Virus record (IMG/VR): IMGVR_UViG_3300032893_000001
Location: 1 to 64,000 of that record
Reading direction: 5' to 3' (one strand)
DNA length: 64,000 bases
Origin: a virus
The stretch's first letter is position 1. The number at the start of each line of letters is the position of its first letter. Both the position numbers and the translations under genes were made by a program. Of this stretch, positions 12,615 through 44,589 are shown one piece after another. The notes beneath the pieces are model-generated. The model did no database searches and was not told the DNA's origin. It saw only the letters and a program-made list of their open reading frames with translations.

Positions 12615-12649
12615 GATGATTTCCTCCTAGAACCGATGTTCAGCCGAAC

Positions 12650-13003: not shown

Positions 13004-13013
13004 GGTCCCTTCC

Positions 13014-14279: not shown

Positions 14280-14292
14280 CGGTCTCTCCTTG

Positions 14293-15096
14293 TCAGCCCT
14301 TGGGCTGCTCCCAGGTCACGGGGTAACCCGCCGCCTCGAGGAGCTCGAGAGCGCGGATCTCCTTGGCCTGCGGGAACTCGGTGGCGGCGGCCACCTTGCT
14401 GTTGTCCTCGTTGAAGCCGAGGGTGAGGACCGCCGACACGCGCGCGGTCGCCTCGTCGCGATCGAAACCGGCCGAGGCCGCTTTCTCGATGGCGAAGGCG
14501 GCAGAGACTTGGGTGAGCGCCGAAGGCGACGCCTTCTTGCTCACGGAGGCTTTCTTCTCCTCCTTCTTCTCTTCCTTCTTCTCCTCGTCCTTCTTCTCTT
14601 CCTTCTCGCCGCCGCCGTCCTTCTTGCCGAGCGCGGCCGCGAGCTGCGGCGGCATCGCCGCCTCTTTCGAGCCCAGGAAGTCGAAGCCGCCTTCGGAGGC
14701 GATCTTGCGGAGCTCCGCCACGTAGGCGTGCGCCATCTGACGACCGAAGAAGTCGGCCTCGGCGAACTTCGCCTGCGCTTCCTTGGTCTGGAGCCACTCG
14801 TTCATCGCCTGCGCCTCGGCCTTCTTCTCGCCGTGGTGCTTGTGGCCGTGCTGCGCAGCCTTCTTGTCCTTGTGCGCGTGGCCGTGCTCTTTCTTCTCTT
14901 CCTCGCCCGCCGTCTTGGCGAACGTGGCGTTCCAGAGCTCGGTGATCTGGCTGTCGTTCAGCGTGCTCAGGTCGATGCCGTTCTCGGCGGCCATCTTCGC
15001 GAAGAGCTCGGCTTGAGCGACCTTCTCGGCGTCAGCGGTCTGCTGAGGCTGGGTCGTGCCGTACGCGTGCGCGAGGTATTCGTGCATCCCACTCAT
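14293..15096 (-). CDS. Scaffold-like inner-head protein
   Basis: 267 aa; about a dozen K-x-A motifs, K/E tract, His-rich patch; ATGA-coupled to the protease gene. Confidence 0.7.
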   Translation of the reverse strand: MSGMHEYLAHAYGTTQPQQTADAEKVAQAELFAKMAAENGIDLSTLNDSQITELWNATFAKTAGEEEKKEHGHAHKDKKAAQHGHKHHGEKKAEAQAMNEWLQTKEAQAKFAEADFFGRQMAHAYVAELRKIASEGGFDFLGSKEAAMPPQLAAALGKKDGGGEKEEKKDEEKKEEKKEEKKASVSKKASPSALTQVSAAFAIEKAASAGFDRDEATARVSAVLTLGFNEDNSKVAAATEFPQAKEIRALELLEAAGYPVTWEQPKG

Positions 15097-16832: not shown

Positions 16833-17419
16833 TCGCGGCCGGACGGCACGTGGAAGTACTCGCTTCCGCCACGACCGTGCTCTCCTTCCGGGCGACGACG
16901 GGTAGCTTGCTGCTGCTCCCGCATGTGCGCCTTGGTGCCCTCCATCACGCCGCCGCCGGCGCTGTGAAGAAAGGCTTCGCCGATCTCCGACTCGGGAAGA
17001 GCCTTGCGGTGCGACAGCGCTTCGATGAGCGCGCCACCAGCGCTGTCCGGGCGCAACATCATCATGCGGCGCATGTACGTACCCGCGATCATCGGGTCCT
17101 TGGTGAACTCCGGATTGATCGTGCGCAGAGAGCTGAAGGACTCGTTGAACTCCTTCGGGCGCGTCGCCAGGAACTCGTGCAGGTCCGCGTTGAATGAAGA
17201 TCCCATCATCGCTCGGAAGTCACGACCCTTGGTGACTGCATCCCAAATCTTCGAAGCGGCGACGCCAGCACCTGCGATCGCGGCGCCGGCGACGGCGGTT
17301 CCCGCACCGGTTGCGGCCGCTCGACCGACCTGCTGCCCGAATCCACGAAGACCATCGAGCGGACCCGCCGCCGTCTTCGTCCCGTGCTTCTCCGCCAAGT
17401 ACTTCTCGAGAGGGTTCAT
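16829..17419 (-). CDS. Glycine-zipper inner-head protein
   Basis: TKTA motif followed by GAGTAVAGAAIAGAGVAA. Confidence 0.65.
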   Translation of the reverse strand: MNPLEKYLAEKHGTKTAAGPLDGLRGFGQQVGRAAATGAGTAVAGAAIAGAGVAASKIWDAVTKGRDFRAMMGSSFNADLHEFLATRPKEFNESFSSLRTINPEFTKDPMIAGTYMRRMMMLRPDSAGGALIEALSHRKALPESEIGEAFLHSAGGGVMEGTKAHMREQQQATRRRPEGEHGRGGSEYFHVPSGRE

Positions 17420-18768: not shown

Positions 18769-19515
18769 ATGGGCTCTTCGAGCAAGGGAAGGCAACGAAC
18801 CGACGACGACCTGCTGACCAAAAAAGAGGCAGCCGAGCACCTCGGGGTTTCGAACGCGATCATTCGCCGCCTGGTCTCTCAAGGCGTTCTCGAGGTCGTA
18901 CAGGTTCGTGGCAAGCAGTACTTCTACCTCTCCGACGTGAACGCAGCCGCGCACGTTCTCTCGCGTGGGATCAACGTCGTCACCGCCAACCAAAATGCGC
19001 TGCGAGCTCTGGCGGGGATCAGCCGGCTCGAGCGACGTCTCAACGACATCGCCTTCGTTTTCGGAACGCGGTACGACACTCCGCCGTTGAACGAAGATCG
19101 TGTTCTGAAGACGTGGGAGAAAGTACACGAGTCCTTGCACCTTCGCTTCGACGCCTTGACCGCCTCCGAAGTGATGGAGTGGGCGCGCTTCTTCTACGAG
19201 ATCGACACCGGATTCCTTTTCCTGGCGAGCCACGTCCTCGAGACGGATGAGCCCTGGGAGCCGTTTGTGCAGCTCGCGAATCTCATTCGAAGGAACGCGC
19301 CCGAGTACCCGCTGCCCGAAGTGCGTGTCGCCTACAACTACTTCGCGGCTGCTGCTCGCTTCATGGAGAACTGCGCCTACCTGCACTGCCGACAAGCCAA
19401 GGGGCCGCGAAAAGCAGACCGGATTTTTCCGACCGTCGATGGCGACCTCGTCAGCTCCTTGCTCAGCCTGATTCACCTTGCCGACAGCAAGGACCCGAAG
19501 TCCGCCGTGCACTAG
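18769..19515 (+). CDS. Helix-turn-helix (excisionase/MerR-like) DNA-binding protein
   Basis: LLTKKEAAEHLGVSNAIIRRLVSQGVL...YFYLSDV N-terminal HTH; AAGGA RBS. Confidence 0.75.
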   Translation: MGSSSKGRQRTDDDLLTKKEAAEHLGVSNAIIRRLVSQGVLEVVQVRGKQYFYLSDVNAAAHVLSRGINVVTANQNALRALAGISRLERRLNDIAFVFGTRYDTPPLNEDRVLKTWEKVHESLHLRFDALTASEVMEWARFFYEIDTGFLFLASHVLETDEPWEPFVQLANLIRRNAPEYPLPEVRVAYNYFAAAARFMENCAYLHCRQAKGPRKADRIFPTVDGDLVSSLLSLIHLADSKDPKSAVH

Positions 19516-21308
19516 CCCTGATTCACCGGGCCAGAGTAGACCGACATCATCGGCCCGCGGTTCTGATCTTCACGCAGCGGCGCGATGATGTCGGGACGCG
19601 GGAACTTGATGCACGAGGCGAGGAAGCAGTAGAGCAGGGAGTGGAAAGAGTCGTCCGGCCTGTCGGGGCCGTGGTCGTACTGGATCATTCGGAGCGTCTC
19701 GTTGTACTCCGAGTGGATGTTGCACATGTCCTGCGCGAACGGCTGCTTGAACTCCTCCCAGCGAGGAAACTCGAAGACGTTGCTGCGCTTGATCGCGTTG
19801 AAGATGTCGCTCATCACCTCGGTACGAAAGACCTTGTAGCGGCGCAACTTCGCGTCGAACTCGACCTTGCGCTTGGCACGCGCCATGTACTGAAACTTCG
19901 CAAGACGGTTCGGACCAAACTTGCGGGTGAGGTGGTCGTTGCGGTCGAAGCCGCCACCGTAGTCGGCGCCGATGATGAGCACACGGAAGTCGTTCAAGAT
20001 CTCATCGAGCGTACGAAGCTGGAGCTGCGGATCGAGCTCGACGCCCGTGAAACGATGCATGTAGATGACGCGGAACTTCATGTTTACGTACGTGCCGAGT
20101 GTCAGCACGGTGTACGTGTTCTCGCCCGTACCCCAATCGAGACCGGCGAAGACTGGATTGTCGACGGCCTTCTCCTTGTACTTCTCGAGAGTGTCCGGAT
20201 GCATCGTGATGTCCGACCGGCAGCACGCCTGCACCTGCGCCATCGTGAGCGGTCGCATGCCTGAGTCGTACGAGAGCCCGAGAACCTCGTTGTAGAACTT
20301 GTCACGAGGATAGCGCTCGTAGTCGAGAAGAATCTCTTCCCACGGCTTCCACGGAACCATGAGCTGCGGAATGCGGTAGCTCTCGAACGGCGCGTTCTCG
20401 ACCTGCCCCGCCCAGACCGCATCTGGATGCTGCGCGTAGATCTGGCCTCCGCACTTCTCGCAGATGAGGCTCGTCCTGCCGATGTTTCGTTCACCGAGGA
20501 TGTTCCAGTAGCGACCACCTTCTCCTCCGTGATGATCGCACGGAACCATCCACTCGCCCTGTGTCGACTGCTGCGCGCGGTAGTACTCGATGTTGTTGTC
20601 GAGACTCTTCGGAGTACCGGCGTAGACGAACTGCCGCCATCGCTTGGGTGCGTGACCCGTGCACTGCTCGATGACAGGAACGTTGTCCGAGAGAATGTCC
20701 TGGAACTCGTCGAGCAGTAGCATCCATGCAGGGATACCGCGGGTGCGGTCTGCGTTGAGGAAGGCGTTGCGCAACGTGATCTTCGACCAGTTGCTGAACT
20801 GCTTCTCGAAGACGTTCTGCGAGAGTGCACGGTTAGTGAAGCCACGCAGAATGTCGCTGGTCTCGATCGGCTCCTTCAGACGATCTGTCGAGAACGTCTT
20901 GGTCTGCGTCGACGTCGGGGAGACGTAGAGGACCTTGAAAGAGGGGACCAGGCAGCAGTACGCGATCGCGCGGTTGCCAAGAAGAGTGGACTTCTCGACC
21001 TGACGGCCCGTGCAGAGAAGGATGCGTCGCGACGACGTGTCGTACGGCATTCGAAGATGACGCCGGCCTTCGAAGGAGAAGTTCTTGAAGCCGGGAAGAC
21101 CATCCTCCCGAGGCATGCGAAAGGCCGCCTCGGTGAACTGGGAAATCGTGACGGACAGACGTCGATCGACAGGCCCCTTCTTCTCGAGTCCATCGAAGAT
21201 GTTTTCGACGACTACAGGCTCCGCAAAGAAGGCAGCCTCCTCGGCGCTGTCATCGAGCGGGTCCTCGTCGACGCTCGGCTCCGACTGCTCTACAGTCTCA
21301 TCAACCAA
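19512..21308 (-). CDS. terL: Terminase large subunit (gpA-like)
   Basis: Walker A-like TGRQVEKS, Walker B LLLDEFQD, motif III GTP, RNase H-type GLDWG and DDSFH; TTG start with GGAGG RBS. Confidence 0.9.
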   Translation of the reverse strand: MVDETVEQSEPSVDEDPLDDSAEEAAFFAEPVVVENIFDGLEKKGPVDRRLSVTISQFTEAAFRMPREDGLPGFKNFSFEGRRHLRMPYDTSSRRILLCTGRQVEKSTLLGNRAIAYCCLVPSFKVLYVSPTSTQTKTFSTDRLKEPIETSDILRGFTNRALSQNVFEKQFSNWSKITLRNAFLNADRTRGIPAWMLLLDEFQDILSDNVPVIEQCTGHAPKRWRQFVYAGTPKSLDNNIEYYRAQQSTQGEWMVPCDHHGGEGGRYWNILGERNIGRTSLICEKCGGQIYAQHPDAVWAGQVENAPFESYRIPQLMVPWKPWEEILLDYERYPRDKFYNEVLGLSYDSGMRPLTMAQVQACCRSDITMHPDTLEKYKEKAVDNPVFAGLDWGTGENTYTVLTLGTYVNMKFRVIYMHRFTGVELDPQLQLRTLDEILNDFRVLIIGADYGGGFDRNDHLTRKFGPNRLAKFQYMARAKRKVEFDAKLRRYKVFRTEVMSDIFNAIKRSNVFEFPRWEEFKQPFAQDMCNIHSEYNETLRMIQYDHGPDRPDDSFHSLLYCFLASCIKFPRPDIIAPLREDQNRGPMMSVYSGPVNQG

Positions 21309-27206: not shown

Positions 27207-30200
27207 CTAGTAATGGTGCGGCGCGACCGCAGGCGTCTTTCCATGCGCCTTGGTGGAAGTAGCCAAGCCGAACTCGGCGCCGTACGCAACACCTGGAATC
27301 GGGTGAGCTCCGTGGATGTGCGAAGCCAGCCCCATCGAGGCCGCTTCCATCAACGTGTTGCGCAACCGCTGGTGCTGAAGCTTGGCCATCCAGTCTTCTT
27401 GCAGCGACAGCGGGAGCATGTCTACTCCCTGAAGAACCGGTTCGTGCAAGATCGGCTGCTTGCCTTTGAGCTCCGTGTCGTTGATCTTGCGGATCATCGA
27501 CGTCGGGTAGAACTCGCCGCGGAGAACGTGCGGGTGGTCACCAGGGTCCTGGACCTTGGTGAGGTTGCTCATCGACTTGACCAGCGTCTCCACCGCGCGA
27601 CGACGAAGCCCCTCGTCCTTGTACAAGTCGTAGATGCTGGCGGCGAGATGGTTCTGCACCTTCTCGATCGACTTCGTCGCCCGGTACAAGTCGTGCGGGT
27701 TGACGTACGTACGATTCGGATCGGAGAGCACTTGCCCTGCGTCGACGTGCAGACCAACCTCCGGCGGCTGCCATCCGACGTAGCTCTTGGCCGTACGGTC
27801 CGCATGCGGCAAGTCTTCGTGGAGCGGCATGCCGCCAGCGTCGCGACCGACGTGGTGCGGCTGCCCGTTCACCCAGATTTTCACGCCGGTCGGGTCTTTC
27901 TCGATGCGCTCGATCTTTCCACTCGTCATCGCCACCGTCGCGGCGTTGGGAATCTTCCTCGGCAGCTTGGTGAGCTGTTCGAAGCGAGCGAACTGGTTCA
28001 AGATCTTCGAGCCGCCACCAGCCTCCTGCACGCCGCCGGTGTGGAAGCTCTTGAGCGTGAGCTGCACCGCGCGCTCTCCAACTGCCTGCGCGGCCATGAC
28101 GCCGACGTTCGTACCTAGAGGATGCAGAGCGCCGTTGACCGAGGGGCCGACGTCCATCTGGCAGAGGCCCTTCGGCATCTCGCACTTGAGCGGGCTACGA
28201 ACAACGACACGCGCGTTCTTGTCCGCCGCTCGAATCTGAGCGACGAGGTCCGGCGTGAGCAGCGTATTGCGGGGAATGTGCAGGTTGCCTGCCTTGAAGT
28301 CCTGCGCGAGGTAGCGATCGTGCACGTCCTTCTCGCCGATGGACAACGATACACCGTTGTGGGTACCGCAGTCGTGCCCCTCGACCATCATGTTCATCGA
28401 GGTATTCATCAGGAGCTTCGAGATGGCGCCCGGCTCTTGAACCTCTTGCACCTTCATGACGGCGCCTCGACGCGCGCCATGGAGCTGCGTCCAGTAGCCT
28501 GCGAGATCGAGTCCTTCGGCGTAGCTCTTGGTCACGGGCGTCGGAATGAAGCGGTCCGCCGAGTCCTTGAGAATCATCGGCGCCAAGACCATCTGCTTGT
28601 ACTGGTCCCAGCTCGGCTTCACGCCGGCGGCCTGCATCAGGAACAAATTCGACGGGTGCGCCGACATCGTGTCCGTGTGCGCCTTCTTCATATCGTCGGA
28701 CGCCTTGATCCAGGCATCGACAGAGCGACGCTCCTTCTCTGCCTCGGAGATGTTCATCGCGTGGATCGCATCAACCTTCTTCTGCGCTTCGCCCAAGACC
28801 CGACCGCGCGCTGCCTTGTCCGGCGTCACGTCATCGAGGGACAACGAATGCGTGCCGATCGGCAACCACTTGTCCTTCACCAGGTCCGTCTTGATGAGGC
28901 CGAAGGACGCTCCGTTGCCGATATCCTTGATGTCGTTGACGATGCGACCGAACTCGTGTCGATGGTTGTTGCCCACGTCCGTGAGCAAAGAATCGAGCCC
29001 TTTCTTGTCGATCTTGAAGGAGAAGTCGGTGAGCATCTTCTGCTGCATCGCCTCCGGCAGCGCCGACGCAAGAAGAACTCGACCAGGCGTCGTCTTCTTT
29101 CCCTTCATCGTCACCACGTCGGTGTAGCTCACAACGCCACGACGAAGAGCGTCTGCGACCTCCGCAGGGCTAGAAAAGAGATGCTTCGTCTCGTTCCCGA
29201 CGAGGGACAGCTTGTACAGCCCGAGCGCGCTCTCTAGCGTCGGTTGGTACATGACCTTGCCGGACGCCTCGTTGAAGATGTTGTTCGACGGGAACATCTT
29301 CTCTGCTTCTCGAACAGCTTCGCTGCTGATGGGAACGAACATCGCCATCGTGTCGCCGTCGAAGTCCGCGTTGTACCCACCCGTAACGAGCGGGTGGATC
29401 TGAATCGCACTTCCGTGAACGAGGCGGGGCTTGAACGCCTGGACGGAGTACTTGTGCAGCGCGGGGTCGCGCTTCAGCAGGACGGGGCGCTCGCTCATGA
29501 CGTGCTCGAGCGCGTGCCACACCGTGGGATCGTCCTTGCCCTTGTGTACGTCGGACAAGAGCTTCTGCGCTTCGAGCGGATTCTTCGCGAGGCCCTGAAG
29601 CACAAGCTGACGAACGACGAACGGTCGAAAGAGCGTGAGAGCGGCGTCCTTCGGAACGCCGACCTCGTCGAGGCCGAGAGCCGGCTCTGGAACGATCGTC
29701 GAGCGCATGGTCAGATCTTGTCGACGGGTGATCAGCGTCTTCTGGAAGAACCCTTCCTTCGGCTGCGACCCCTTGATCTGCTCGAGCAGCCCGCGCTCCT
29801 TGCGCTCACGGTTGAGTGAGCCGACGCCGACCAGCGCCTTGATGCCATCGTAGTAGTCGTCACGGAGCTTCTGCTTGCGCTTGTCCGTGAGGTTGGCCTG
29901 AAGAACCGGGTCCTTCAGCTTGTCGTTGACCTGTGCGAACTGAGCGTAGAGCCCGTTCACGTCCTCGTACTTCACGTTGCCATCCTGCATCACCGTCAAT
30001 GGGCGAATGACCGGAGGCAAGATCGGAAGGTTGTGCAAGATGTACGCTTCCGACGGCTTCAGATCGAGCTGATGAAGCGCCTCGAGGTACTTCACGCGCT
30101 TGAGCGAAGAGTCGAGCTTCGACGCAGATGCTGTGCGCAGCTCTCGACGAGCTCGTTGAAGTTCACCGGGAACCTCGATGCGATCGAGTAGCATCTTGAT

Positions 30201-33200
30201 GCCCGCGCCGCCGGCGACTCCATCCTTCGCAGAGACGATCTTGAACGTCGTCGGATGAACGCCGAGCTCACCGGAGACGACTCCATCGAAGTTCTTCTGG
30301 GTCAGCCCCGTCAAGCTCTTGATCGCGTTCTCGAACACCGGGTTCGGAACAGGCTCCGCAAGCTTGATGTGCGACCACTTCGTGCCGCCGTGCCCTCCCG
30401 TGACCTTCTCATCGAAGAGCCCGCCCGGCATCGGCTTGAGCTCTCCCGTCTTGTCCGCCTTCGCGCGAACGAGCTTGCCAGCGTCCTTCAGCTCACCGCC
30501 CGACATCGACAGAATGTGCTTGTCCGTCAACGGGGACAGCACGAGGTTGCTGCCATGCTTCTCGATGTTGATGCCCGCGCCCTTGAGCATCTCGGTGAAC
30601 TTGTGGAAGGCGAACGTCGGCTTCGGAGGAGGAAGCGCAGTCCCTTCTTGAATCGCCTTCCACACGTCGATGTGCTGTGAAGGCCAACGCTTGGCCTCGT
30701 TCGATTGGGGATCGGTGCCTTCGCTCTTCCACGTCTGCATCTCGCGGATGTTCGCTCGAGCTCCGTGCGCCAGCATCGCGTACAAGCCGAGTGCACCAAG
30801 ACTCTGCCCACCTGCGTGACCGCCACTCGAGGGCTGAAGATTCATGTCGTAGCCCTCGGAGCCAGGCATGCCCGGCAAGTTCATGCCGGAGCGGACCGAG
30901 AGCTTCTTCTCGACTTGATGCACGAGCTTCAGCATGTACTGCGGACCGGTGAGGGCCTTGCCGAGAGACTTCTTCGTGATCGGGTCGAAGAGCTCCTCGG
31001 TATCACTGATGCCATGCTGCTTCAGATCGCTTTTCACCTTCTCGAGGTAGTCGGGCGTCTTCGCATCGAAGTTCTTGACCACGTAGGGCTTGCCGGTCTT
31101 TTCGGCGATCTTCGCCGCAGCAGTCTCGAGCATCTGCCCGATGTTCATACGACCGGGAACGCCCGACGGGTTCAGCAGCACGTCGACGGGCTTGCCGCTC
31201 TTGTCGTGCGGCATCTCGTGGTTCGGCAAGATCATCGTGACGATGCCCTTGTTGCCGTATCGCCCCGCCAACTTGTCGCCGACCTGCATCGGCTCCGTGG
31301 TTCGCACGTGGACCGTGATCTTGTCCGGGCCGCGGTGAACACCGACGACCTCGCCTTCGAACTCGGAATCCCAACGAACGGAGCTGTCCGTGTGGTGTCC
31401 TAGTACGTGCTTGCGCATGGCAGCGAGTCCGGTTCGATCTTTCACCTCGAAGGGGCGCATCGCCACAATCAGTGGATCGCCAGGATGAACCTTCTGTCCG
31501 ACGCGAACGACGCCCTTGTCGTCGAGCTTGTCGAACTGCTTCGAGTTGAAGACGCCAGGGTGCTGCTGGTTGAACTGCTTGGGATCGAAGACGACGTTGT
31601 CGATCTTGTCGAGACTGTGCTTGTGCAGGTGCAAGCTGGACAACTTGTCCGCCGCGGCCTGGCTGATGACCACGCCGTCCTCGAAGTTGTACCCCTTGAA
31701 TGGCACGTACGAGACGCGCAGGTTCGTACCGAGCGCAAGCGCTCCGCCCTTGGAGAAGTTGGTGTCCGCGAGAACTTGCCCTGTCTTCACGTGCTGACCG
31801 ACGCTGACTGTCGGCGTCGAGTGAAGGACGCTCTTCGCGTCGTTGAGCGGGTAGTAGTGGTACGTCTGCACCTCGTGATCCACACCGTTCTTGTCCGTGA
31901 CGATCACGCCATCCTTGAGCAGCTTCTTGACCGTCCCATCGACAGGAGAACGTTGCGACGTCTGATGCCCAAGAACGCGCTCGAAGGTGTCGATGCCTTC
32001 TGCTGCGACACCCGACGATACCTGCACCAACGGAGCCTCGCGGTTGACGAGGGAGATCGCTTGCTCCATGTGGCGGCTCGCCATTCCCGCGCGGCCGCCC
32101 GAGTTGTTCCCCAAGAAGGGAATGAGGTTCGACGTCAGGTTGAAGAGCTGGCTCGAGTGCCGCAGAACGTAGTCCGCTTCTTGAAGCTTGCCTTCCTCGA
32201 TCTTGTTGCCCTTGCCCACCATCTTTACGCGGCCGGAGGTGGCGTGGGGCTTTCCATCTTTCCACTCGACCTGGTCCGGCAGCGCGACACGACTCACAGC
32301 AAAAGTGTCTGGGCCGATGTCCTCGATACGCCCAGTCTTCATGTTGTAGAGCGGGATTCTCGCTTCGTTGCCGATCTTCTTCACGCCAAGAGGCAGGCGC
32401 AGCGTTACCCCTGTCTTCTCTCCTTCCGGAGTGTTGATGGGATCGAGGAACCCGATGTGCGAAGGATTGATCATCTTCGCTTCGTTGTTGACACTGCGCT
32501 CCGTTTTGATGCCGCCAGGACCCATGATCGTGGTCTGCATCGCTGAAGACGCCATCTCGAGAGGGTTGATCTGACTGGCTGCTCGAGAGACTGCGGCTCC
32601 CGTAAAGAACTGTCGAATGGGCTCGTTGAAGACGTCGAATTTGACGACGTCGCGAATGCCGCTGACGCGTTGGCTGTTGAGCTGCCGCTGCACCTTCTGA
32701 GTAATCGGGCGCGCGACGCGACGAAGAGCGTCCTGCGCATAGTCGCCAACCGTCCTCAAATTCTTGAAGGTCAAAGAGTCGCGATCATCCTCTGGAGCGC
32801 CCGCCTGCACCTTGAGGAGCTTCTTAGTTGCAAGATGAAGAGCGTCCCCCGTCACGTGGTCGAATCGCTGACCGAGTGTGCGTTCCGTGACCTCGGGTAG
32901 AAGCCTGGACTCCTGCATCGTGTGGAACAGTAACTCCTCGACTTCCTTCCGAGACGTCGCCGGTTTGCCCGTAGTCGTCTTGTAGAACTGCTCGAGTGTT
33001 CCTGCCGTACGCTTAGCGTTCTTATTCGCGCTGAAGATCTCCTTACCCCACGACTTCTCGAGGTCGTCGTCACTCACCCCCATCGTCTTGAGGAGCGGGT
33101 AGATTGGAAGCTTGGCCTTCTTGTACTTGACGGTGAACTGCTTCGAAGCGGGATCGAAGATGATGTCAAAGCTGCTTCGACTAACGACGTTGAACTTCGC

Positions 33201-33593
33201 GTTCAGTTCCCCGTTGTCTTGCCGACGAACGTAGACACCCGGCTTGAGCTGCCACTGGTTGTCGACCTGGTACTCCTGCCCATCGACGATGTAGCTGTAG
33301 CGCTCGGTCGGCCGAGGGAGCTCCATCAGACGAACGCGTTTCTGGTCGATGACCTTGTTCGTGTCGTTGTCGCGCAGCGACATCGTGGCGTAGACCGGCA
33401 CCGCCCACGTCTTGCCGTCGATCTTCGCTTGGTGCTGCGAGCGAATGTCATTCGAGCGAAGGTTGTCTTCCACGTCGATGTTGTCGAGGTGAAGCGACAG
33501 CGTGCGCCCTCGGATCGGGAAGTGCGTCTTCACGGTGTCGACGACGTGGGAGCGCAGGTCTTCGAATGCTTCGTCGGGGTTCAGGTAGGCCAT
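27207..33593 (-). CDS. rpoBC: DNA-directed RNA polymerase, fused beta-beta' single chain (2128 aa)
   Basis: Beta motifs (TPEG, GYNFEDG, GDKLAGRYGNKG, LNPSGVPGRMNIGQ, YMLKLVH) followed in the same frame by beta' motifs (LPPVIRP, RDPALH, NADFDGD, GARRG, AAQAVGE...LKSFHTGG). Confidence 0.95.
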   Translation of the reverse strand: MAYLNPDEAFEDLRSHVVDTVKTHFPIRGRTLSLHLDNIDVEDNLRSNDIRSQHQAKIDGKTWAVPVYATMSLRDNDTNKVIDQKRVRLMELPRPTERYSYIVDGQEYQVDNQWQLKPGVYVRRQDNGELNAKFNVVSRSSFDIIFDPASKQFTVKYKKAKLPIYPLLKTMGVSDDDLEKSWGKEIFSANKNAKRTAGTLEQFYKTTTGKPATSRKEVEELLFHTMQESRLLPEVTERTLGQRFDHVTGDALHLATKKLLKVQAGAPEDDRDSLTFKNLRTVGDYAQDALRRVARPITQKVQRQLNSQRVSGIRDVVKFDVFNEPIRQFFTGAAVSRAASQINPLEMASSAMQTTIMGPGGIKTERSVNNEAKMINPSHIGFLDPINTPEGEKTGVTLRLPLGVKKIGNEARIPLYNMKTGRIEDIGPDTFAVSRVALPDQVEWKDGKPHATSGRVKMVGKGNKIEEGKLQEADYVLRHSSQLFNLTSNLIPFLGNNSGGRAGMASRHMEQAISLVNREAPLVQVSSGVAAEGIDTFERVLGHQTSQRSPVDGTVKKLLKDGVIVTDKNGVDHEVQTYHYYPLNDAKSVLHSTPTVSVGQHVKTGQVLADTNFSKGGALALGTNLRVSYVPFKGYNFEDGVVISQAAADKLSSLHLHKHSLDKIDNVVFDPKQFNQQHPGVFNSKQFDKLDDKGVVRVGQKVHPGDPLIVAMRPFEVKDRTGLAAMRKHVLGHHTDSSVRWDSEFEGEVVGVHRGPDKITVHVRTTEPMQVGDKLAGRYGNKGIVTMILPNHEMPHDKSGKPVDVLLNPSGVPGRMNIGQMLETAAAKIAEKTGKPYVVKNFDAKTPDYLEKVKSDLKQHGISDTEELFDPITKKSLGKALTGPQYMLKLVHQVEKKLSVRSGMNLPGMPGSEGYDMNLQPSSGGHAGGQSLGALGLYAMLAHGARANIREMQTWKSEGTDPQSNEAKRWPSQHIDVWKAIQEGTALPPPKPTFAFHKFTEMLKGAGINIEKHGSNLVLSPLTDKHILSMSGGELKDAGKLVRAKADKTGELKPMPGGLFDEKVTGGHGGTKWSHIKLAEPVPNPVFENAIKSLTGLTQKNFDGVVSGELGVHPTTFKIVSAKDGVAGGAGIKMLLDRIEVPGELQRARRELRTASASKLDSSLKRVKYLEALHQLDLKPSEAYILHNLPILPPVIRPLTVMQDGNVKYEDVNGLYAQFAQVNDKLKDPVLQANLTDKRKQKLRDDYYDGIKALVGVGSLNRERKERGLLEQIKGSQPKEGFFQKTLITRRQDLTMRSTIVPEPALGLDEVGVPKDAALTLFRPFVVRQLVLQGLAKNPLEAQKLLSDVHKGKDDPTVWHALEHVMSERPVLLKRDPALHKYSVQAFKPRLVHGSAIQIHPLVTGGYNADFDGDTMAMFVPISSEAVREAEKMFPSNNIFNEASGKVMYQPTLESALGLYKLSLVGNETKHLFSSPAEVADALRRGVVSYTDVVTMKGKKTTPGRVLLASALPEAMQQKMLTDFSFKIDKKGLDSLLTDVGNNHRHEFGRIVNDIKDIGNGASFGLIKTDLVKDKWLPIGTHSLSLDDVTPDKAARGRVLGEAQKKVDAIHAMNISEAEKERRSVDAWIKASDDMKKAHTDTMSAHPSNLFLMQAAGVKPSWDQYKQMVLAPMILKDSADRFIPTPVTKSYAEGLDLAGYWTQLHGARRGAVMKVQEVQEPGAISKLLMNTSMNMMVEGHDCGTHNGVSLSIGEKDVHDRYLAQDFKAGNLHIPRNTLLTPDLVAQIRAADKNARVVVRSPLKCEMPKGLCQMDVGPSVNGALHPLGTNVGVMAAQAVGERAVQLTLKSFHTGGVQEAGGGSKILNQFARFEQLTKLPRKIPNAATVAMTSGKIERIEKDPTGVKIWVNGQPHHVGRDAGGMPLHEDLPHADRTAKSYVGWQPPEVGLHVDAGQVLSDPNRTYVNPHDLYRATKSIEKVQNHLAASIYDLYKDEGLRRRAVETLVKSMSNLTKVQDPGDHPHVLRGEFYPTSMIRKINDTELKGKQPILHEPVLQGVDMLPLSLQEDWMAKLQHQRLRNTLMEAASMGLASHIHGAHPIPGVAYGAEFGLATSTKAHGKTPAVAPHHY

Positions 33594-33610: not shown

Positions 33611-33640
33611 AAGTTACCCCACGCGCAGAACGTCGAGCAA
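33611..33640 (-). promoter_or_regulatory. Sigma70-like promoter candidate for the RNAP gene
   Basis: TTGCTC-N18-TAACTT, ending 17 nt before the ATG. Confidence 0.4.
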
Positions 33641-33664
33641 GACGAGTGCAGACGCAGGAACAAG
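33637..33664 (+). promoter_or_regulatory. Candidate phage promoter GCAA-N16-GGAACAAG
   Basis: One of four copies found at plus-strand operon starts. Confidence 0.5.
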
Positions 33665-33718
33665 AACTATGGCGAAAAACATCGCGTTCGCCGCAAAAAC
33701 GCAGCGTTGGAGAATTTG

Positions 33719-33847
33719 ATGACGAACTGCCCGATCGAGCCCGGCGACAACGCCGGCAAGAGGTTCGAAGAGATCATCGACCGGCTGTTTTGGAACGATG
33801 AAGACGTGGACGACGAGTGCGACGAGGAAGACCAAGAGGAGGACTGA
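33719..33847 (+). CDS. Small acidic peptide (42 aa)
   Basis: MTNCPIEPG...DEDVDDECDEEDQEED; GGAGA RBS; TGATG-coupled on both sides. Confidence 0.45.
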   Translation: MTNCPIEPGDNAGKRFEEIIDRLFWNDEDVDDECDEEDQEED

Positions 33848-33925
33848 TGCTGCATCTTTTTGGCTGGGCGCTCTTGTTCGGATTCCTTCACGGCCTGCGG
33901 GCCTGGATGCTGGAGAGGCTGCGCC

Positions 33926-34525
33926 ATGATCGTACACCCTGAACAGGAAAGAAGCCGCTTCACTACGTGCGGCGGGCGGATGCTGGAGGAAACCTTCGGC
34001 CTTGTCGGCGTCAAGGTGACAGACCCGCTACGGGCCGACCGGCAGTGGACGCTGGACGGCGTCTACCTGCCGGTGCGCGGAAGGCTCGTCGGTGGCATCC
34101 GCGCGCACGCCACCGATCAGAAGGGCTTCGCGTCGTTCATCAACCAGCGTGACCTCGAGGTCCTCCTTGGAGTCGGTCAACCGGGGACGTACTGCCGATG
34201 GCTCGGGCAGGACTACGTCGACCCGCTCGACAAGGAACGTTGGTTCGGATTCGTGATGGATGACGATGACCTGACCGACGACCTGTACGCGCGTGAGCAA
34301 GAAATGCGGCTTGTGCAGGAAGAAGTAACGGGAGCGGTGCTCTTGCCTGAAGGAGTCGAGCTCACGAGGCGAATCCACCTCAGCCCCGGAGTCGATTGCG
34401 AAGAGCTCCTGTTGTTCGCAGGAGAGCAGTGGTTCGAGAACGGCGTTCCAGACTTCCGCGTCGAGACCGCGGAGTTGCGCTGGCGACGCGTAGAAAGGAT
34501 TGCAGTCGAATGGCGGAGAATCTAA
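33926..34525 (+). CDS. Hypothetical protein
   Basis: ATG 33926 after GGAGAGG; typical codon use. Confidence 0.65.
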   Translation: MIVHPEQERSRFTTCGGRMLEETFGLVGVKVTDPLRADRQWTLDGVYLPVRGRLVGGIRAHATDQKGFASFINQRDLEVLLGVGQPGTYCRWLGQDYVDPLDKERWFGFVMDDDDLTDDLYAREQEMRLVQEEVTGAVLLPEGVELTRRIHLSPGVDCEELLLFAGEQWFENGVPDFRVETAELRWRRVERIAVEWRRI

Positions 34526-35142: not shown

Positions 35143-35435
35143 GTGGGCAGGGCAAGTTCCTCGCCACTCGGATGGCGCGGAACCCGTACGGGGTGACGGA
35201 CCATGTCGTCGAGCGCTTCATGGAGCGCTGGCTCGACAGCCGTCACCTCTACAAGCAAGAGGTGCGCAACCACATCAACCAGCAGATTGCAGCGGCGTTC
35301 AAAGACGGAACGGTGCTCGTCAACTACGACGGCAAGAACAAGGTTCCGATCTCCTTCATGGGCGTTGACGGGTGGGCCATCGTGGACTCCGCCGGCAACG
35401 TCGTCACCGTCTACACGAAGAACGAGGACAAGTAA
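35139..35435 (+). CDS. Small protein, DUF4258/RelE-like fold candidate
   Basis: TDHVVERFMER...GNVVTVY pattern; GTGA overlap with the upstream gene; GGAGG RBS. Confidence 0.5.
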   Translation: MSGQGKFLATRMARNPYGVTDHVVERFMERWLDSRHLYKQEVRNHINQQIAAAFKDGTVLVNYDGKNKVPISFMGVDGWAIVDSAGNVVTVYTKNEDK

Positions 35436-36649
35436 TGCACACCGTCGAAGATGTGATCCGAGTTGCCATCTCCGTTCCCCTCGGAGACCCGAACGATCCG
35501 AACTGCATGTGGGGGTTGCCGTTGCTCATCTGGGGGAATCCGGGCATCGGCAAGTCCTCCCGCATCAAGAAGCTTGCGGCGCTTCTGCAAACGTACGCGG
35601 GCGTCGTCCTGCCGGCAGGACGTCTTCCCGAGGACTTCGCGGGACTCGCAGTGCAGGATGGCAAAGGGGGCGTCAACCTCGTCAGCATCCTGATGGCGGT
35701 GCGTGAGCTCGTGGAGATCGGCGAGGGCATCTTGTTCCTCGACGAGATCAACACCGCCCGCAGCGCCGTTCAGTCCACACTTCTTGGCGTCGTACTGGAC
35801 CGACGGTCTGGCGACGTCGAGATTCCTGGCAAGGTTCGTATCATCGCAGCCGCCAACCCTGTCGAGACCAGCGCCGGCGGCCACCCGCTCGAAGCTCCTC
35901 TCGCCAATCGGTTCATCCATTACGAGATGGACAAGCCGACGGCTCGCGAATGGGGAAACTACGTGCTCGGCGTCAAGAACGAGGAGGAAGACGTCACGCC
36001 TCTCTACGACATCGAGACGAAGATCAAAGAGAACTGGGCGAGGGCGTGGCTCGAGGTTGCACCTGTCTTCGTGGGCTACGCAGAAAGGTTCCCGAAGGCC
36101 CTCGAGGACATTCCCGATGCGGGCTCTACAGAGCGAAGCAAAGCGTTCCCGACCGCGCGCACGATGGAATGGGCCGTCCGCGCAGCAACGACGTGCCGCA
36201 TCCTGAACATCGGCGGGCAGCTCGAGTCCGTCATGCTCAAAGCGTGCATCGGCGCTGGTGCACGTGACGAGTTCCTCGCCTACCGCCGCGACTTGAAGCT
36301 GCCTTCTCCGAAGCAGGTCTTGAGCGAAGGCTTCGAGCCGGACAAACGCCTCGATCGCAACTACGTCGTGTACATCTCTCTCGCTGCGTACATCACTGGA
36401 CTTCCGCACAAGCAGGCGCAGGTCGACGCGGTGCTGAAAGCATGGCCGATTCTCCAACGTGGCTGCGAGGCTGGCTTCGCCGATCTCGTCTACCCCGCGG
36501 CGGTCGAGCTCGTGAACAAGAACCTGAGCTCTCTCGGTGGAGAGAAACTGGCGAAAGCATCCGAGCCGGTGATCGGACGATTCGGAGATCGTCTGATGAA
36601 GAACGCGAAGAAGATCTACGACTACAACAAGAACAAGGAGGCCGTATGA
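35435..36649 (+). CDS. MoxR-like AAA+ ATPase
   Basis: GNPGIGKS Walker A, LFLDEIN Walker B, AAANP, PLANRF. Confidence 0.9.
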   Translation: MHTVEDVIRVAISVPLGDPNDPNCMWGLPLLIWGNPGIGKSSRIKKLAALLQTYAGVVLPAGRLPEDFAGLAVQDGKGGVNLVSILMAVRELVEIGEGILFLDEINTARSAVQSTLLGVVLDRRSGDVEIPGKVRIIAAANPVETSAGGHPLEAPLANRFIHYEMDKPTAREWGNYVLGVKNEEEDVTPLYDIETKIKENWARAWLEVAPVFVGYAERFPKALEDIPDAGSTERSKAFPTARTMEWAVRAATTCRILNIGGQLESVMLKACIGAGARDEFLAYRRDLKLPSPKQVLSEGFEPDKRLDRNYVVYISLAAYITGLPHKQAQVDAVLKAWPILQRGCEAGFADLVYPAAVELVNKNLSSLGGEKLAKASEPVIGRFGDRLMKNAKKIYDYNKNKEAV

Positions 36650-37842
36650 GCGTAGAAGACGAGCTGCTCATGCTCGGTCGAGTGTACGTGCAGGCGCACG
36701 CGCCCTACTTCGGTAGGGCCGTGCTCAGCCTGATTCCACACGCCGAGCGTCGCGTTCCCACGCTCGGCGTCACGCCAGGCATGATCCTCTACTACAACCC
36801 CGACTACCTGCGGAAGCTGGAGTCGGAGAAGAGAATCGGTACGCGTCTCTGGCATGAAGTACAGCACGTGTTGCGGCACTCCTTCACACGATTGATCGGG
36901 GTCAACCAGCGCATCGCGAACATCTGCGAGGACCTCGCCATCAACACGACAGGAAGGCACGACCCCGCGTGGGACTTCTCTCCTGACGGATTGCTCCCCG
37001 AGAAGTACGGCCTTCCCGTGGACCTGACTGCCGAGGAGTACTACGCACTGGTGCCGCCGAGTGCGGCGAACGAGGAAGTGAGCGCATGCGCAGGGCAATG
37101 CGGCGGCGTTGCCGGTAACGCGAGCAACGACGAGCTCGAGAAGGAACTCGACGAGCTGTACGGACGAGAGGAATCCGAAGTCGAGCAGATCAAACAGCAG
37201 GTTGCCGACGACATCATCCGTCACGAGAAGACGCATGGAACGATTCGCGGTGGCTGGTCTCAGTGGGCAAAAGCGATTCTCGCGCCGTCCACGATCCGGT
37301 GGCAGACCTTCTTCCAGAACACCATCCGCGCATGCGTCAGCAAGTTGTCGTACGGCGACAGCGACTACTCGATGGCGCGCCCTTCTCGTCGCTCGTATGG
37401 AATGCCTCCCGGACCCTTCCGTCCTGGTCTGGTTGGGGAGGAGATCGAGTTCGCGATCGTGCTCGACACGAGCGGTTCGATGGATATCGACCGACACATC
37501 AAGCCGTGCCTCCGAGAAGCGCGCGGCATCATCATGCAGTCAGGCGCAGAGGACGCCTGGTTCATTCAAGCCGACGCGATGTACGACGAACGCATCCGTC
37601 GCGTACGCGCCTCAGAGCTCGTCGAAGTGGAGATCGTTGGGCGTGGTGGAACGGACTTTCGTCCCGCCATCGAACGAGCTCAACGCCTTCATCCAAAGCC
37701 TTCCATTCTCATCTACCTGACCGACGGGTACGGTCCCGCACCCGATCGAGCACCGGCCGGGATGGAAGTCATCTGGTGCTTGGTCGGAGAACAAGTAAAG
37801 GAGCCAGCGACATGGGGTCACGTCGTTCGCGTTCCGAAGTGA
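36646..37842 (+). CDS. Metallopeptidase-like (HExxH) + VWA domain protein (DUF2201-like)
   Basis: WHEVQH...DLAIN; DTSGSM MIDAS, GGTDF, LTDG; partner of the AAA ATPase. Confidence 0.85.
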   Translation: MSVEDELLMLGRVYVQAHAPYFGRAVLSLIPHAERRVPTLGVTPGMILYYNPDYLRKLESEKRIGTRLWHEVQHVLRHSFTRLIGVNQRIANICEDLAINTTGRHDPAWDFSPDGLLPEKYGLPVDLTAEEYYALVPPSAANEEVSACAGQCGGVAGNASNDELEKELDELYGREESEVEQIKQQVADDIIRHEKTHGTIRGGWSQWAKAILAPSTIRWQTFFQNTIRACVSKLSYGDSDYSMARPSRRSYGMPPGPFRPGLVGEEIEFAIVLDTSGSMDIDRHIKPCLREARGIIMQSGAEDAWFIQADAMYDERIRRVRASELVEVEIVGRGGTDFRPAIERAQRLHPKPSILIYLTDGYGPAPDRAPAGMEVIWCLVGEQVKEPATWGHVVRVPK

Positions 37843-38639: not shown

Positions 38640-40691
38640 TCAGACGAGCGTCGTCATTCTACGCGGCGATCGCTGCTCAGGAAGCGGTCGCATGTCGACG
38701 CCCCCCTGCGAGCCGGCCATGATCTGCTCCTTGTCCTTCTGGAGCTGCTTCAGATACTGCCCCGTGAGCGCGGCGAGATCGGGGCTCGTGGTCTGGAGAT
38801 TCTGAAGGGCCATCTGCTGCATCGCAGGGTCGAGGTGCGAGATCTGCTGGGCGTACGACATCGCCATGCTAGGCAAGTCGACGTTCTGCTGCCCGCTCTG
38901 TTGCATGTTCTGCTGGCGTCCGAGACGGCTAGAGATCGCGCTGTGGAACTCTTGATCCGGCGTCGGTGCTTCCAAGAGTGCGCTTCCGGGCGGCAGCGGA
39001 GAGGCTTGGGGATCGGTGAGGTCTGCCGGCGCGCCCGCCGCGGCGGCCTGCTGACCACCAGGCGTTCCTGCCCCCAACTGGTCCTGAGCTCCGGGCTCTC
39101 CTGGCGCGGGTCCCTGCTGCATCGCCTGCTGCTGCACCTGCTGCGCCTTGGCTTGGTACTTGGCCATGACGAGAGACGACTCGCCCTGGATCTCAGCCAT
39201 CGCGAGCTGCTGCGTCTTGGTTGCTTCGAGACGCGTCTTCGTCTCCTTCAGCATCAGCTTGTTCTCCTCCTCTTGCGAGAGGTCGGAGTCCGCGAGCAGC
39301 GTCGAGTCGCTGATCTTGTTGAGCTGGTTGAACTGGAGCATCAGCGACTTGCGCTGGATGTCGTCGGCCATCTTGAAGGGCTTGAAGCGCCCCTTCGCCA
39401 TCGGCCAATCGAGGAAGTTGGAAACCTCCTGCATGACGAATCGGAACAGATGCTTGTGGCGCAACACGTAGCCGATGAAGGCATTTTCGAGCATGCGCAT
39501 CGACACGTTCGTCCCCGCGTAGGACAAGCCACCGAACACGAACTCGCGGGGCACTCCCATGCCAACGACGATCTGCTCGCTCCACTGCTGGATCTCGGGC
39601 GTCAGCATGAGCGCCTTGCCGTCACCACCGATGGTCTGGTTGCCCACCGGCAAAGGCAGGATGGGGATGTAGTTGTTGTCGTATCGCCAACGACCGATCT
39701 CGGTCGCGACATGATCGCGCCAGTCGACAAGGTTGATGCTCGTGAAGGGATCGGCGGTACCGGCGGCAGGCTGCGGAAAGAGGATGCGCAGCGGCACGAT
39801 GTGCTCGAGCAGGATTGCCTCCTGCGCCTTCTTCATGAGCTGAAGGTAGTACGTGTCCTTCAGGACAGGCAGAAGAAGAGGGATGCCCCATCCTCGATCC
39901 TGCGTAGCGAGCGACGGACGACGAAGATGGAAGACCTTGTCCTTCGCGAGGACGAGTCCCTTCTGCTCCTTCAGCGCCTGGATGAAGATCTGCGGGATGG
40001 TCTCGACCACTTCCTTGCGACCGATGATGATGTCGTTCCGGATGACCGCGGGGATCGTGTAGAAGTACGTGTAGTCGCCGGTGAGGTCGTTGTAGAGGAT
40101 CTCCATGTCCTCCGGGTTCCAGCGAATGAGCTTCACGCCGCTCGGGTTCTTCAAGTACAAGTCCGTGACGATCGCATCACCCGTCGTGTGGCAACCAGGG
40201 CACGCGAGCCGGAACGAGTAGTTCGTGAAGACCCAGTGGTTGCGGCAACGGTTCGCAACCTCGCGCCAACCGCACGTCGCGCAGCGCAGGTACTTGTGGA
40301 AGTTGTAGCCGATGCTGATGAACGCGTTGCCGTAGGCGAAGTAGTCGAGTCCGACCTCCACCTGAAAGGCGCGGTACTGAAGATGGTCTTGGAAGAAGTC
40401 CATCCAGCGATCTTTGGTGCGCGCGTCGTCGTGATCGATGATGAGGTCTGTGACGGGGTACTCACTCATCTTGAAGACGACCGCGTTGATCAACGGGTTC
40501 GTCAAGAAGTAGTACCGGCACCAACGGAACATCTGCTTGACCGTGACGGGCAAGTAGGTGTGCGCGACGTCGAAGAACGGCGAGGGGTAGTTGACTCCCT
40601 GGACAGGGCTGCCCTGAATGCGGCCGCGCGTCTGCGAGAAGCGGAAGGCGTTCGCCGGACCGCCGACACCCATGCCGCCTGCCATCGTCAT
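38640..40691 (-). CDS. Portal protein with Zn-ribbon insertion and Gln-rich C-terminus
   Basis: NPLINAVV, DYFAYGNAF, HLRRP...WGIP, GMGVPREF portal-like motifs; CATC...CPGC insertion. Confidence 0.8.
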   Translation of the reverse strand: MTMAGGMGVGGPANAFRFSQTRGRIQGSPVQGVNYPSPFFDVAHTYLPVTVKQMFRWCRYYFLTNPLINAVVFKMSEYPVTDLIIDHDDARTKDRWMDFFQDHLQYRAFQVEVGLDYFAYGNAFISIGYNFHKYLRCATCGWREVANRCRNHWVFTNYSFRLACPGCHTTGDAIVTDLYLKNPSGVKLIRWNPEDMEILYNDLTGDYTYFYTIPAVIRNDIIIGRKEVVETIPQIFIQALKEQKGLVLAKDKVFHLRRPSLATQDRGWGIPLLLPVLKDTYYLQLMKKAQEAILLEHIVPLRILFPQPAAGTADPFTSINLVDWRDHVATEIGRWRYDNNYIPILPLPVGNQTIGGDGKALMLTPEIQQWSEQIVVGMGVPREFVFGGLSYAGTNVSMRMLENAFIGYVLRHKHLFRFVMQEVSNFLDWPMAKGRFKPFKMADDIQRKSLMLQFNQLNKISDSTLLADSDLSQEEENKLMLKETKTRLEATKTQQLAMAEIQGESSLVMAKYQAKAQQVQQQAMQQGPAPGEPGAQDQLGAGTPGGQQAAAAGAPADLTDPQASPLPPGSALLEAPTPDQEFHSAISSRLGRQQNMQQSGQQNVDLPSMAMSYAQQISHLDPAMQQMALQNLQTTSPDLAALTGQYLKQLQKDKEQIMAGSQGGVDMRPLPEQRSPRRMTTLV

Positions 40692-44046: not shown

Positions 44047-44589
44047 ATGAACCAAACGACGGTGCAGACCACTCAGCAGCCCGAGTGCTACGGCAAGATC
44101 TGGGACCAAAGCGCGGTCGAGTGCGCCGGCGGCTACGACGCGACCTTCGTGGCACCCAACGGCGCCAAAGTTCGCCCGCGCTGCGATTACTTCGACTCCT
44201 GCAAGATCCGAACAGCTCTGGCGAAAACCGAGGCGCAACAGCGCGCGCTGGTGGCCCCCTCGAGCCTGATCCGTCCGCAGCAGCCGGCGGCGCCGTATGC
44301 TCCACGATTCCAGCAGCCGCCTCCGATGCAGATGACTCCCCAAGCAGCGCCTCCGCCGGCGTACCCGAACCCGCACTATCCGTACCCAATCGTGGTCAGC
44401 CAGCCGGTGCAGATGATGCCGACCAACTACGGAATCCCTGCGTACCTGACCGTTCCGGAAGAGAGGCGGTCTGGTGAGCACTTCCTCGCTCCACTTGGAC
44501 GCGAGATGCTTCGTGCAGGCGGCAAGGCTCTCGGGCATGCGTTCGCAGCCTGGCTCGATCACAACGCGTTCAGCAAGAAGGAAGAATGA
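44047..44589 (+). CDS. Cys4 (Zn-finger-like) protein with Pro/Gln-rich region
   Basis: CYG...C...CDYFDSC; AGGAGG RBS. Confidence 0.7.
   Translation: MNQTTVQTTQQPECYGKIWDQSAVECAGGYDATFVAPNGAKVRPRCDYFDSCKIRTALAKTEAQQRALVAPSSLIRPQQPAAPYAPRFQQPPPMQMTPQAAPPPAYPNPHYPYPIVVSQPVQMMPTNYGIPAYLTVPEERRSGEHFLAPLGREMLRAGGKALGHAFAAWLDHNAFSKKEE

Follow-up and report, generated by a model that had tools for sequence, protein, structure and literature searches.

A bacterial-type beta-beta' RNA polymerase in a single chain, encoded by an uncultured wetland phage

Phage RNA polymerases (RNAPs) of cellular type are known in two forms, the much-split, sigma-less enzymes of phiKZ and AR9 and the barely recognisable single chains of crAss-like phages and P23-45. 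The phiKZ/AR9-type enzymes are made of 4-5 polypeptides in two paralogous sets, are highly diverged and have no sigma-70 homologue (PMC7598289, PMC7824862). Reviews of phage multisubunit RNAPs treat split, sigma-less enzymes only, and in a survey of 224 jumbo phages the RNAP-bearing phages lack sigma. For phage Arash, Gp206 has been assigned as subunit beta and Gp216 as beta', with no mention of a fusion or of absent subunits in the part of the paper available to us (PMC10585845); database records label the Arash RNAP proteins 'subunit beta'. Our literature search, which extended to that same part of the Arash paper, found no description of a fused family. Here we analyse a gene for a bacterial-type beta-beta' RNAP in one chain, carried by an uncultured wetland phage whose 184,953-bp virus record (IMG/VR IMGVR_UViG_3300032893_000001) is rated complete. 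The window, the stretch of DNA that was analysed, is the first 64 kb of that record, and an earlier note made from its letters had proposed a streamlined single-chain beta-beta' enzyme inside the virion gene block. Feature coordinates are collected in Table 1.

The fused chain, its junction and its family

Pfam domains of a bacterial beta subunit and then of beta' follow one another along the single chain, with Rpb2_3 and Rpb2_6 in the first half and Rpb1_1, Rpb1_2 and Rpb1_5 in the second. All but one exceed the Pfam gathering score (Rpb2_6 206 bits, Rpb2_3 35, Rpb1_2 105, Rpb1_5 57); Rpb1_1, which is the domain that normally holds the Zn ribbon, falls under its cut-off (28.2 vs 39.7). The protein matches solved bacterial beta' chains at E 1e-95 and is the single RNAP match in the complete genome record. 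BLAST alignment to E. coli K-12 beta and beta', in which the beta N-terminus was aligned through BLAST blocks, gives 26-30% identity over nearly the full length and retains the beta active-site motifs, the NADFDGD loop, bridge helix, trigger loop, lid, rudder and clamp helices. By these comparisons the gene product is identified as a phage-encoded, single-chain beta-beta' RNAP of bacterial type, as the earlier note had read it, and each motif quoted there was found at its position in the open reading frame (ORF) at 27207-33593 (-).

The catalytic centre had been described as intact, and it is: NADFDGD occupies amino acids (aa) 1408-1414 (29352-29372), and its Asp residues (D411, D413 and D415 of alignment A1) are invariant across the family. 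The beta barrel motifs GDK..GNKG, with the conserved lysine, and NP.GVP.RMN are present at aa 772-783 and 806-820, so that the chain holds both double-psi barrels, and in addition it has a flap. Its bridge helix and trigger loop can be aligned in sequence to those of E. coli beta'. Modelled from 66-sequence alignments, the beta' half (aa 1000-2128) reached a mean predicted local distance difference test score (pLDDT) of 90.0, a predicted template-modelling score (pTM) of 0.86 and a template-modelling score (TM) of 0.82 to solved bacterial beta', and the beta half (aa 1-1130) reached a mean pLDDT of 88.0, a pTM of 0.77 and a TM of 0.72-0.74 to solved bacterial beta. In these models the halves fold as bacterial beta and beta', and at the level of sequence and predicted fold the chain is a competent catalytic core. 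The counterpart of the beta flap tip (aa 719-731) was modelled as a flexible or disordered loop with pLDDT <50. The rifampicin pocket differs from that of E. coli at residues 516, 526, 529 and 531, the classical resistance positions, and in the His526 column G, S, A and D are commonest, together accounting for 53 of 66 diverse relatives. Because the pocket residues are not conserved at these positions, the enzyme is probably rifampicin-insensitive.

At the junction, FTEMLKGAGINIEK (aa 999-1012, 30558-30599) forms the beta C-terminal-like side and LSPLTDKHILSMSGGEL (aa 1019-1035, 30489-30539) the beta' N-terminal-like side. The equivalent of E. coli beta residue 1339 is followed at once by that of E. 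coli beta' position 16, and both subunit tails are trimmed. The AlphaFold model places aa 1008-1013 and 1016-1021 in adjacent strands. The junction is conserved without gaps in 110 close relatives and is the same in Arash and D69.

Such a fusion could also be artefactual, a stop or frameshift between two genes being masked by an error of assembly or sequencing; a stop or frameshift at the junction in raw reads is what the earlier note had named as refuting its proposal. Nothing spoke for such an artefact. No stop or frameshift was found at the junction in independent contigs or in the 110 relatives. Logan contigs from three wetland runs span it with 0 differences; two of these runs may be the source sample, and the third comes from another sample and study. 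One open frame was present in about 60 related loci, each complete IMG/VR locus having a single open RNAP frame of 2061-2217 aa, or of 2517-3008 aa in the longer forms, and 109 of 148 new 50%-identity cluster representatives found by HMMER measured at least 2000 aa. Since the junction is gap-free in relatives, the related frames are open and the independent contigs are identical, we reject an artefactual fusion, to which we assign next to no probability.

The fused design is widespread. A word-indexed search listed 120 clusters of fused proteins, 2119-2171 aa long and 56-84% identical, on contigs that reach 200 kb, and an exhaustive HMMER search yielded 150 matches at 35-59% identity, each representing one 50%-identity cluster. 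Among cultured phages, the nearest relatives are Salmonella phage Arash and Vibrio phages D69, D148 and D181, at 31% identity over 94% of the length. Many relatives (e.g. P0017, P0041, P0052, P0063, P0080, P0092 and P0094) have insertions that lengthen the chain to 2472-3008 aa and beyond, with recurrent breaks at aa ~1413-1416 (inside NADFDGD), ~1852 (beside FHTGG) and ~1462. Several of these longer chains contain the LAGLIDADG domain PF14528, suggesting that the insertions are probably inteins.

A second alternative is that the gene is a cellular rpoB-rpoC, either recently captured or derived from a co-assembled bacterial contig. Two contigs of the phage family, CALFEQ010000137.1 and JBMOIG010000394.1, were indeed binned in two Myxococcota metagenome-assembled genomes (MAGs), which is also a weak hint that Myxococcota are the host group. 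However, both MAGs carry an ordinary separate rpoC on other contigs, ~60% identical to that of E. coli, and the neighbours of the fused gene are terminase, portal and spike genes, not the ribosomal-protein genes that, together with a place in a cellular rpoBC clade, the earlier note had named as grounds for abandoning its proposal. The phylogeny it had suggested (MAFFT and FastTree on the beta' N-terminal half, 371 columns, a small and unrooted sample of 25 sequences including E. coli, Staphylococcus, a Myxococcota MAG, Rhizobium phage TM30, Carin-5 and YerA41) set the fused family with Arash and D69 apart from cellular and other phage beta' with support of 0.906. The GC content of the RNAP gene is uniform with the rest of the phage, and its product is about as similar to the solved beta' chains of one bacterial phylum as to those of the next. 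The tree separation, the even similarity and the uniform GC content indicate at the sequence level that the gene was not recently captured; with its phage neighbours and the separate host rpoC added, we reject a cellular origin at the level tested and regard its probability as negligible.

Zinc sites, cysteine content and chain length

The N-terminal Zn ribbon of beta' (E. coli C70, C72, C85 and C88) is deleted, and in a profile alignment to solved beta' chains a gap of ~32 residues falls precisely on it. The deletion that the earlier note had reported thus stands, but GLFDEKVTGG (aa 1058-1067) does not lead directly to WSHIKLAEP (aa 1073-1081) as it had put it, since the 5 residues HGGTK intervene. 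None of the motif-bearing family representatives has at least 3 Cys in the 60 residues past GGLFD. The three Cys of the whole chain align with E. coli beta' C814, C888 and C895 of the second Zn site, and the equivalent of C898 is Asp1814, within CQMD (aa 1811-1814). The replacement of CxxC by CQMD had been presented as a feature of the enzyme; it is present, but it is a derived quirk, with Asp as the fourth ligand in 6 of 110 close relatives and Cys in the other 104. Family members typically have four Cys at this site and hardly any elsewhere (median 4 Cys per ~2100 residues). By alignment, the subclade of this phage retains the second Zn site, in which the phage itself swaps the fourth ligand for Asp.

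The 3 Cys in 2128 aa compare with 22 in E. coli beta plus beta', and at 0.14% Cys the RNAP is among the most Cys-poor large proteins of the genome, compared with ~1.4% in a crude ORF set. Four giant ORFs (1035-1341 aa) contain no Cys at all: one running from window position 63148 to genome position 66969 (-), and those at genome 91053-95078, 138890-141997 and 156496-160116. Together with the RNAP these are the most Cys-poor large proteins of the phage.

The chain is 621 aa shorter than E. coli beta plus beta' (1342 + 1407 = 2749 aa), so the deficit of about 600 aa claimed at the outset is correct as arithmetic. It is overstated as a measure of reduction, since ~400 aa of it, and thus most, are E. 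coli-specific insertions (SI1 ~119-130 aa, SI2 105 aa, SI3 ~168 aa). The beta' module of 1116 aa is ~45-80 aa shorter than the shortest solved bacterial beta' chains in the PDB (1161-1199 aa). The word "streamlined" is fair, the chief real losses being the Zn ribbon, the subunit tails and part of the beta lobe region.

Probable sigma partner, possible assembly and delivery

The earlier note had seen no alpha, omega or sigma gene in the window. None lies there, and Pfam models for alpha (PF01193, PF01000) and omega (PF01192) had no match anywhere in the 184,953-bp genome, with controls matched in 14 of 14 genomes. A sigma-70-family gene is, however, present ~115 kb from the polymerase gene; because the phage encodes this sigma outside the window, the enzyme is not sigma-less. 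Cultured-phage relatives of the sigma at E 1e-16 or better are only Arash, D69, D148 and D181, the RNAP-bearing phages, the one further match being weak (E 4e-4), to a Microcystis phage fliA sigma. Metagenomic sigma homologues lie on contigs of the same sizes as those of RNAP homologues (192242, 197661, 133539 and 178566 bp). The same cultured phages and the same-sized contigs for both genes indicate that sigma and polymerase are co-inherited, and we think it likely that this sigma would direct the enzyme to promoters. The structure prediction called for in the earlier note returned bacterial folds for both halves, as above, and weak support for a complex of sigma with the beta' clamp, with an interaction prediction score from aligned errors (ipSAE) of 0.32 vs 0.02 for the best control. 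Of 80 solved complexes 58 attain the ipSAE mark, as do 2 of 110 mismatched pairs, but scores of 0.60 or less come from only 7 of the 80; prediction runs agree in at least 47% of contacts, with partner pLDDT of at least 67. Since sigma-core complexes have already been solved, this outcome may reflect likeness or memorised structures. A profile search for T7-type RNAP (PF00940) was uninformative, its controls being likewise unmatched.

With a tight turn linking beta (aa 1-1012) to beta' (aa 1013-2128) at the place where the separate subunits normally meet, covalent tethering may substitute for the alpha-dimer assembly platform, in which case neither alpha nor omega would be needed. We put the chances of this somewhat above even. 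The natural Helicobacter fusions show tethering to be tolerated, but alpha is kept there. The phage chain could instead recruit host alpha2 and omega, and possibly a host sigma, inside the cell: its architecture is bacterial overall, the omega-contacting C-terminal region of beta' is retained, nothing that could stand in for alpha or omega was identified in the phage, and the Helicobacter beta-beta' fusions still work with alpha and omega (PMC9696931, and as is generally known). The likely hosts of the family include Salmonella, Vibrio and Myxococcota, however, and with only 26-30% identity to any host core, kept interfaces with the alphas of so many hosts are less likely. The phage also has its own co-inherited sigma, and we judge the use of host subunits unlikely.

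The RNAP gene had been placed within the block of structural genes, and its position between portal and terminase, on the same strand, bears this out. Across 69 IMG/VR loci and a single contig from a MAG (40-66% identity), the genes run portal, variable block, RNAP, spike homologue, two more genes, TerL. The shorter series portal, RNAP, spike, TerL is kept down the range of 40-84% identity and also in Arash. The distance of 3 nt to the baseplate spike gene is exact. The identity of the spike is less secure, as the likeness of this 441-aa protein to gp5/gpV spikes comes from language-model features only, with no match in Pfam, PHROGs or PDB sequence searches; a homologue follows the RNAP gene in nearly all related loci. 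Most neighbouring genes had no PHROGs or Pfam match. Between the portal and RNAP genes lies a plus-strand block (35372-37842) that encodes, besides a MoxR-like AAA+ ATPase with the Walker A motif GNPGIGKSS, a protein of 466 aa. The latter matches phrog_1314 (labelled 'HNH endonuclease') but looks by eye like a von Willebrand factor A (VWA) protein or metallopeptidase. Homologues of this block occur at the same place in many relatives, on the strand opposite the RNAP gene. A 107-aa upstream ORF (33614-33937) was rejected as a small subunit, since its composition is noise-like and related loci lack a homologue. Neither the window helicase (44586-46292) nor the 441-aa protein downstream is a homologue of Arash Gp217.

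About 90 nt before the RNAP start lies a hairpin that resembles a terminator and has a T-run (33683-33703); TGGGGTAACTT (33611-33621) ends 17 nt ahead of the ATG, which no Shine-Dalgarno sequence precedes. The gene may have its own short-leader transcript, judging from this arrangement. The broad motif GG-N-A-Y-A-A-G was not enriched ahead of gene starts, and TG-N-GG-TAWYYT, proposed for the RNAP gene, was rejected as a promoter class because 4 genome occurrences are too few. A promoter-like class GCAA-N19-GGGATAAGA has 11 exact copies (for example 147676-147704, minus strand), only at genome 119-164 kb and 178.6 kb, outside the window, with GGAG ~7-9 nt after them and the listed copies oriented with the local genes. 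One copy stands directly before the sigma gene and none before the RNAP gene.

Taken as a whole, the reading that we favour, and consider likely, combines a one-chain core, a phage sigma, tethering in place of the alpha platform, delivery in the virion and a start of transcription that does not depend on the host core. The RNAP would be produced along with the structural genes, enter the capsid and be delivered alongside the DNA, and the delivered enzyme would then start phage transcription without host core enzyme. The loss of the Zn ribbon and the purge of Cys outside the second Zn site would suit a protein that survives outside the cell and passes the tail. We regard this packaging step as fairly probable because of the conserved place in the structural block, the single RNAP per genome, the Cys depletion resembling that of other giant, probably virion, proteins, and the Arash proteome: in particle preparations of that phage Gp206 had the highest spectral count, above the capsid protein, and Gp216 and the sigma Gp10 were also found, all three ranking with the most abundant proteins, according to the part of the paper available (PMC10585845).

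Several points weigh against the favoured reading. The Arash proteome comprises 116 of 272 proteins and includes ribonucleotide reductases, dNMP kinase, primase and RNA ligases (PMC10585845, Table 2), so the preparation was not stringent, and in the available part of the text carry-over is put forward by the authors themselves as another explanation. No leader for targeting or cleavage is recognisable at the N-terminus of the RNAP, which aligns with the start of beta, and the hairpin and promoter-like element upstream make a timing apart from the structural operon possible. The Sigma70_r2 model had no match in the genome, although sigma region 2 is recognisable by eye. The absence of alpha and omega rests on Pfam models, so that the phage may have highly diverged analogues or may rely on those two subunits of its host. 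The mixed proteome, the upstream elements and the absent leader would fit a non-virion enzyme, in which RNAP and phage sigma are synthesised once infection has begun, the host transcribing their genes, and then control middle or late transcription, the presence of the protein in particle preparations being carry-over. Carin-5, YerA41 and Rhizobium TM30 keep bacterial-type beta, beta' and sigma genes in replication modules, and there is a resemblance to the phiKZ-type non-virion RNAPs. Such an enzyme sits poorly with a family gene that always lies between portal and spike/terminase on the structural strand, with one RNAP per genome, with the extreme Cys depletion and with an Arash chain that exceeds the capsid protein in spectral counts, and we consider it rather improbable. 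In the Arash paper 88 proteins were re-annotated as structural from the proteome (PMC10585845, Table 2), which, as far as the available part goes, is probably too generous.

Table 1. Positions of the features discussed (window coordinates unless marked as genome)
Feature	Position	Strand	Basis or remark
Whole gene, fused beta-beta' RNA polymerase	27207..33593	-	2128 aa + stop, ATG start, one intact ORF
Beta module, aa 1-1012	30558..33593	-	E. coli beta alignment reaches residue 1339; without SI1, SI2
Beta' module, aa 1013-2128	27210..30557	-	E. coli beta' alignment begins at residue 16; without SI3 and N-terminal Zn ribbon
Junction, last beta strand and first beta' strand joined by a short KHGSN turn	30489..30599	-	alignment, model, relatives, contigs
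NADFDGD catalytic loop of beta' double-psi barrel	29352..29372	-	aa 1408-1414, aligned to E. coli 458-464
Beta active-site motif GDKLAGRYGNKG (E. coli GDKMAGRHGNKG)	31245..31280	-	BLAST alignment
Site of deleted beta' Zn ribbon	30351..30422	-	Gly-rich loop TGGHGGTK in place of ~32 residues
Second Zn site, C1742, C1804, C1811 and D1814 (replacing fourth Cys)	28152..28370	-	alignment to E. coli beta'
Beta' clamp helices (coiled coil), sigma region 2 dock in bacteria	29829..29963	-	beta' model helices 212-228, 238-256; alignment
Beta flap-tip counterpart, sigma region 4 dock in bacteria	31389..31451	-	alignment; function presumed
Rifampicin-pocket counterpart (E. coli beta 505-537)	32511..32609	-	D516S, H526S, R529Q, S531T
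Putative upstream control region	33611..33703	-	hairpin, then TGGGGTAACTT; no Shine-Dalgarno sequence
Baseplate spike candidate, gp5/gpV-like, 441 aa	25878..27203	-	begins 3 nt past RNAP stop
Large terminase (TerL) gene, downstream	19512..21308	-	phrog_675, E 1.6e-51; position conserved
Probable portal gene, upstream	38640..40691	-	weak PHROG match; homologues upstream of RNAP gene in related loci and Arash
Sigma-70-family gene, 248 aa	genome 146911-147657	-	Sigma70_r3, r4 above Pfam cut-offs; outside window

Comparison with known systems

Arash (Gp206 + Gp216, sigma Gp10; PMC10585845), D69, D148 and D181 belong to the same family as the enzyme described here and have an orthologous sigma gene. 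Arash and D69 share the junction (signature TFA..KF / GG-LFD-..-TGG) and the Zn-ribbon deletion and are its sister in the tree, and their RNAP gene likewise lies beside the portal gene. In the cultured phages, however, beta' is cut again near aa 1505, giving chains of 1525 + 606 aa with several genes or homing endonucleases between them, whereas this phage and most uncultured relatives have the whole enzyme in one chain. The gap is filled by small ORFs or homing endonucleases in the Vibrio phages (D69 12551-13190) and by a 4.7-kb block of opposite-strand genes in Arash (12503-17274). With such genes inserted, the split looks secondary to an ancestral full fusion.

Naturally fused rpoB-rpoC genes of Helicobacter and Wolinella were reportedly described by Zakharova et al. 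in 1998 and 1999 (cited in PMC9696931). They resemble the phage gene in that bacterial beta and beta' are tethered in one polypeptide. The Helicobacter and Wolinella polymerase serves the cell as its housekeeping enzyme, together with alpha2, omega and host sigmas; its Zn sites are kept, and its gene lies in a ribosomal-protein context. The phage gene differs in having no alpha or omega, a deleted Zn ribbon and, by the tree, an independent origin.

Among phages, the phiKZ/AR9 enzymes are also two-barrel RNAPs homologous to beta and beta', without alpha or omega, and one of their sets is packaged in the virion. The enzyme here differs by its one chain, its one copy, its full-length bacterial similarity and its sigma-70-family partner. 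The crAss-like enzymes, the tape-measure-fused virion RNAP of Thermus phage P23-45 (PMC10770324) and YonO have both barrels in one polypeptide, as here, and the first two are delivered with the virion; they are minimal enzymes with only the barrels recognisable and no sigma, in contrast to the full bacterial domain set of this chain. The distinction from split phiKZ-type and very diverged crAss-type enzymes drawn in the earlier note therefore holds, with the sigma as a further difference. Cobetia phage Carin-5, Yersinia phage YerA41 and Rhizobium phage RHph_TM30 carry bacterial-like large subunits as well, and in Carin-5 a sigma gene adjoins the RNAP subunit genes. Their beta and beta' genes are separate and lie in replication modules, their full-length matches are at 24-25% identity, and they branch apart.

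It is conceivable, though we would not count on it, that chain and sigma form a self-sufficient two-protein holoenzyme without alpha or omega that is packaged inside the capsid and then threaded through the phage tail, the Zn-ribbon loss and Cys purge being adaptations to unfolding, export and refolding. If true, this would be the simplest known sigma-dependent RNA polymerase of cellular type and would add a third, independently evolved kind of virion RNAP to the N4 and phiKZ types. The family raises the questions of whether tethering can stand in for the alpha platform, what the beta' Zn ribbon and the second Zn site are needed for, and how a 236-kDa enzyme would be packed and delivered. A compact, probably rifampicin-insensitive and sigma-programmable one-chain RNAP would also be a potential tool for orthogonal transcription. 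Common to hundreds of uncultured large phages and to cultured Salmonella and Vibrio phages, the fused design is a third form of phage cellular-type RNAP, beside the split and the minimal single-chain forms: one chain that holds a near-complete bacterial core and is paired with a true sigma-70-family factor, without recognisable alpha or omega.

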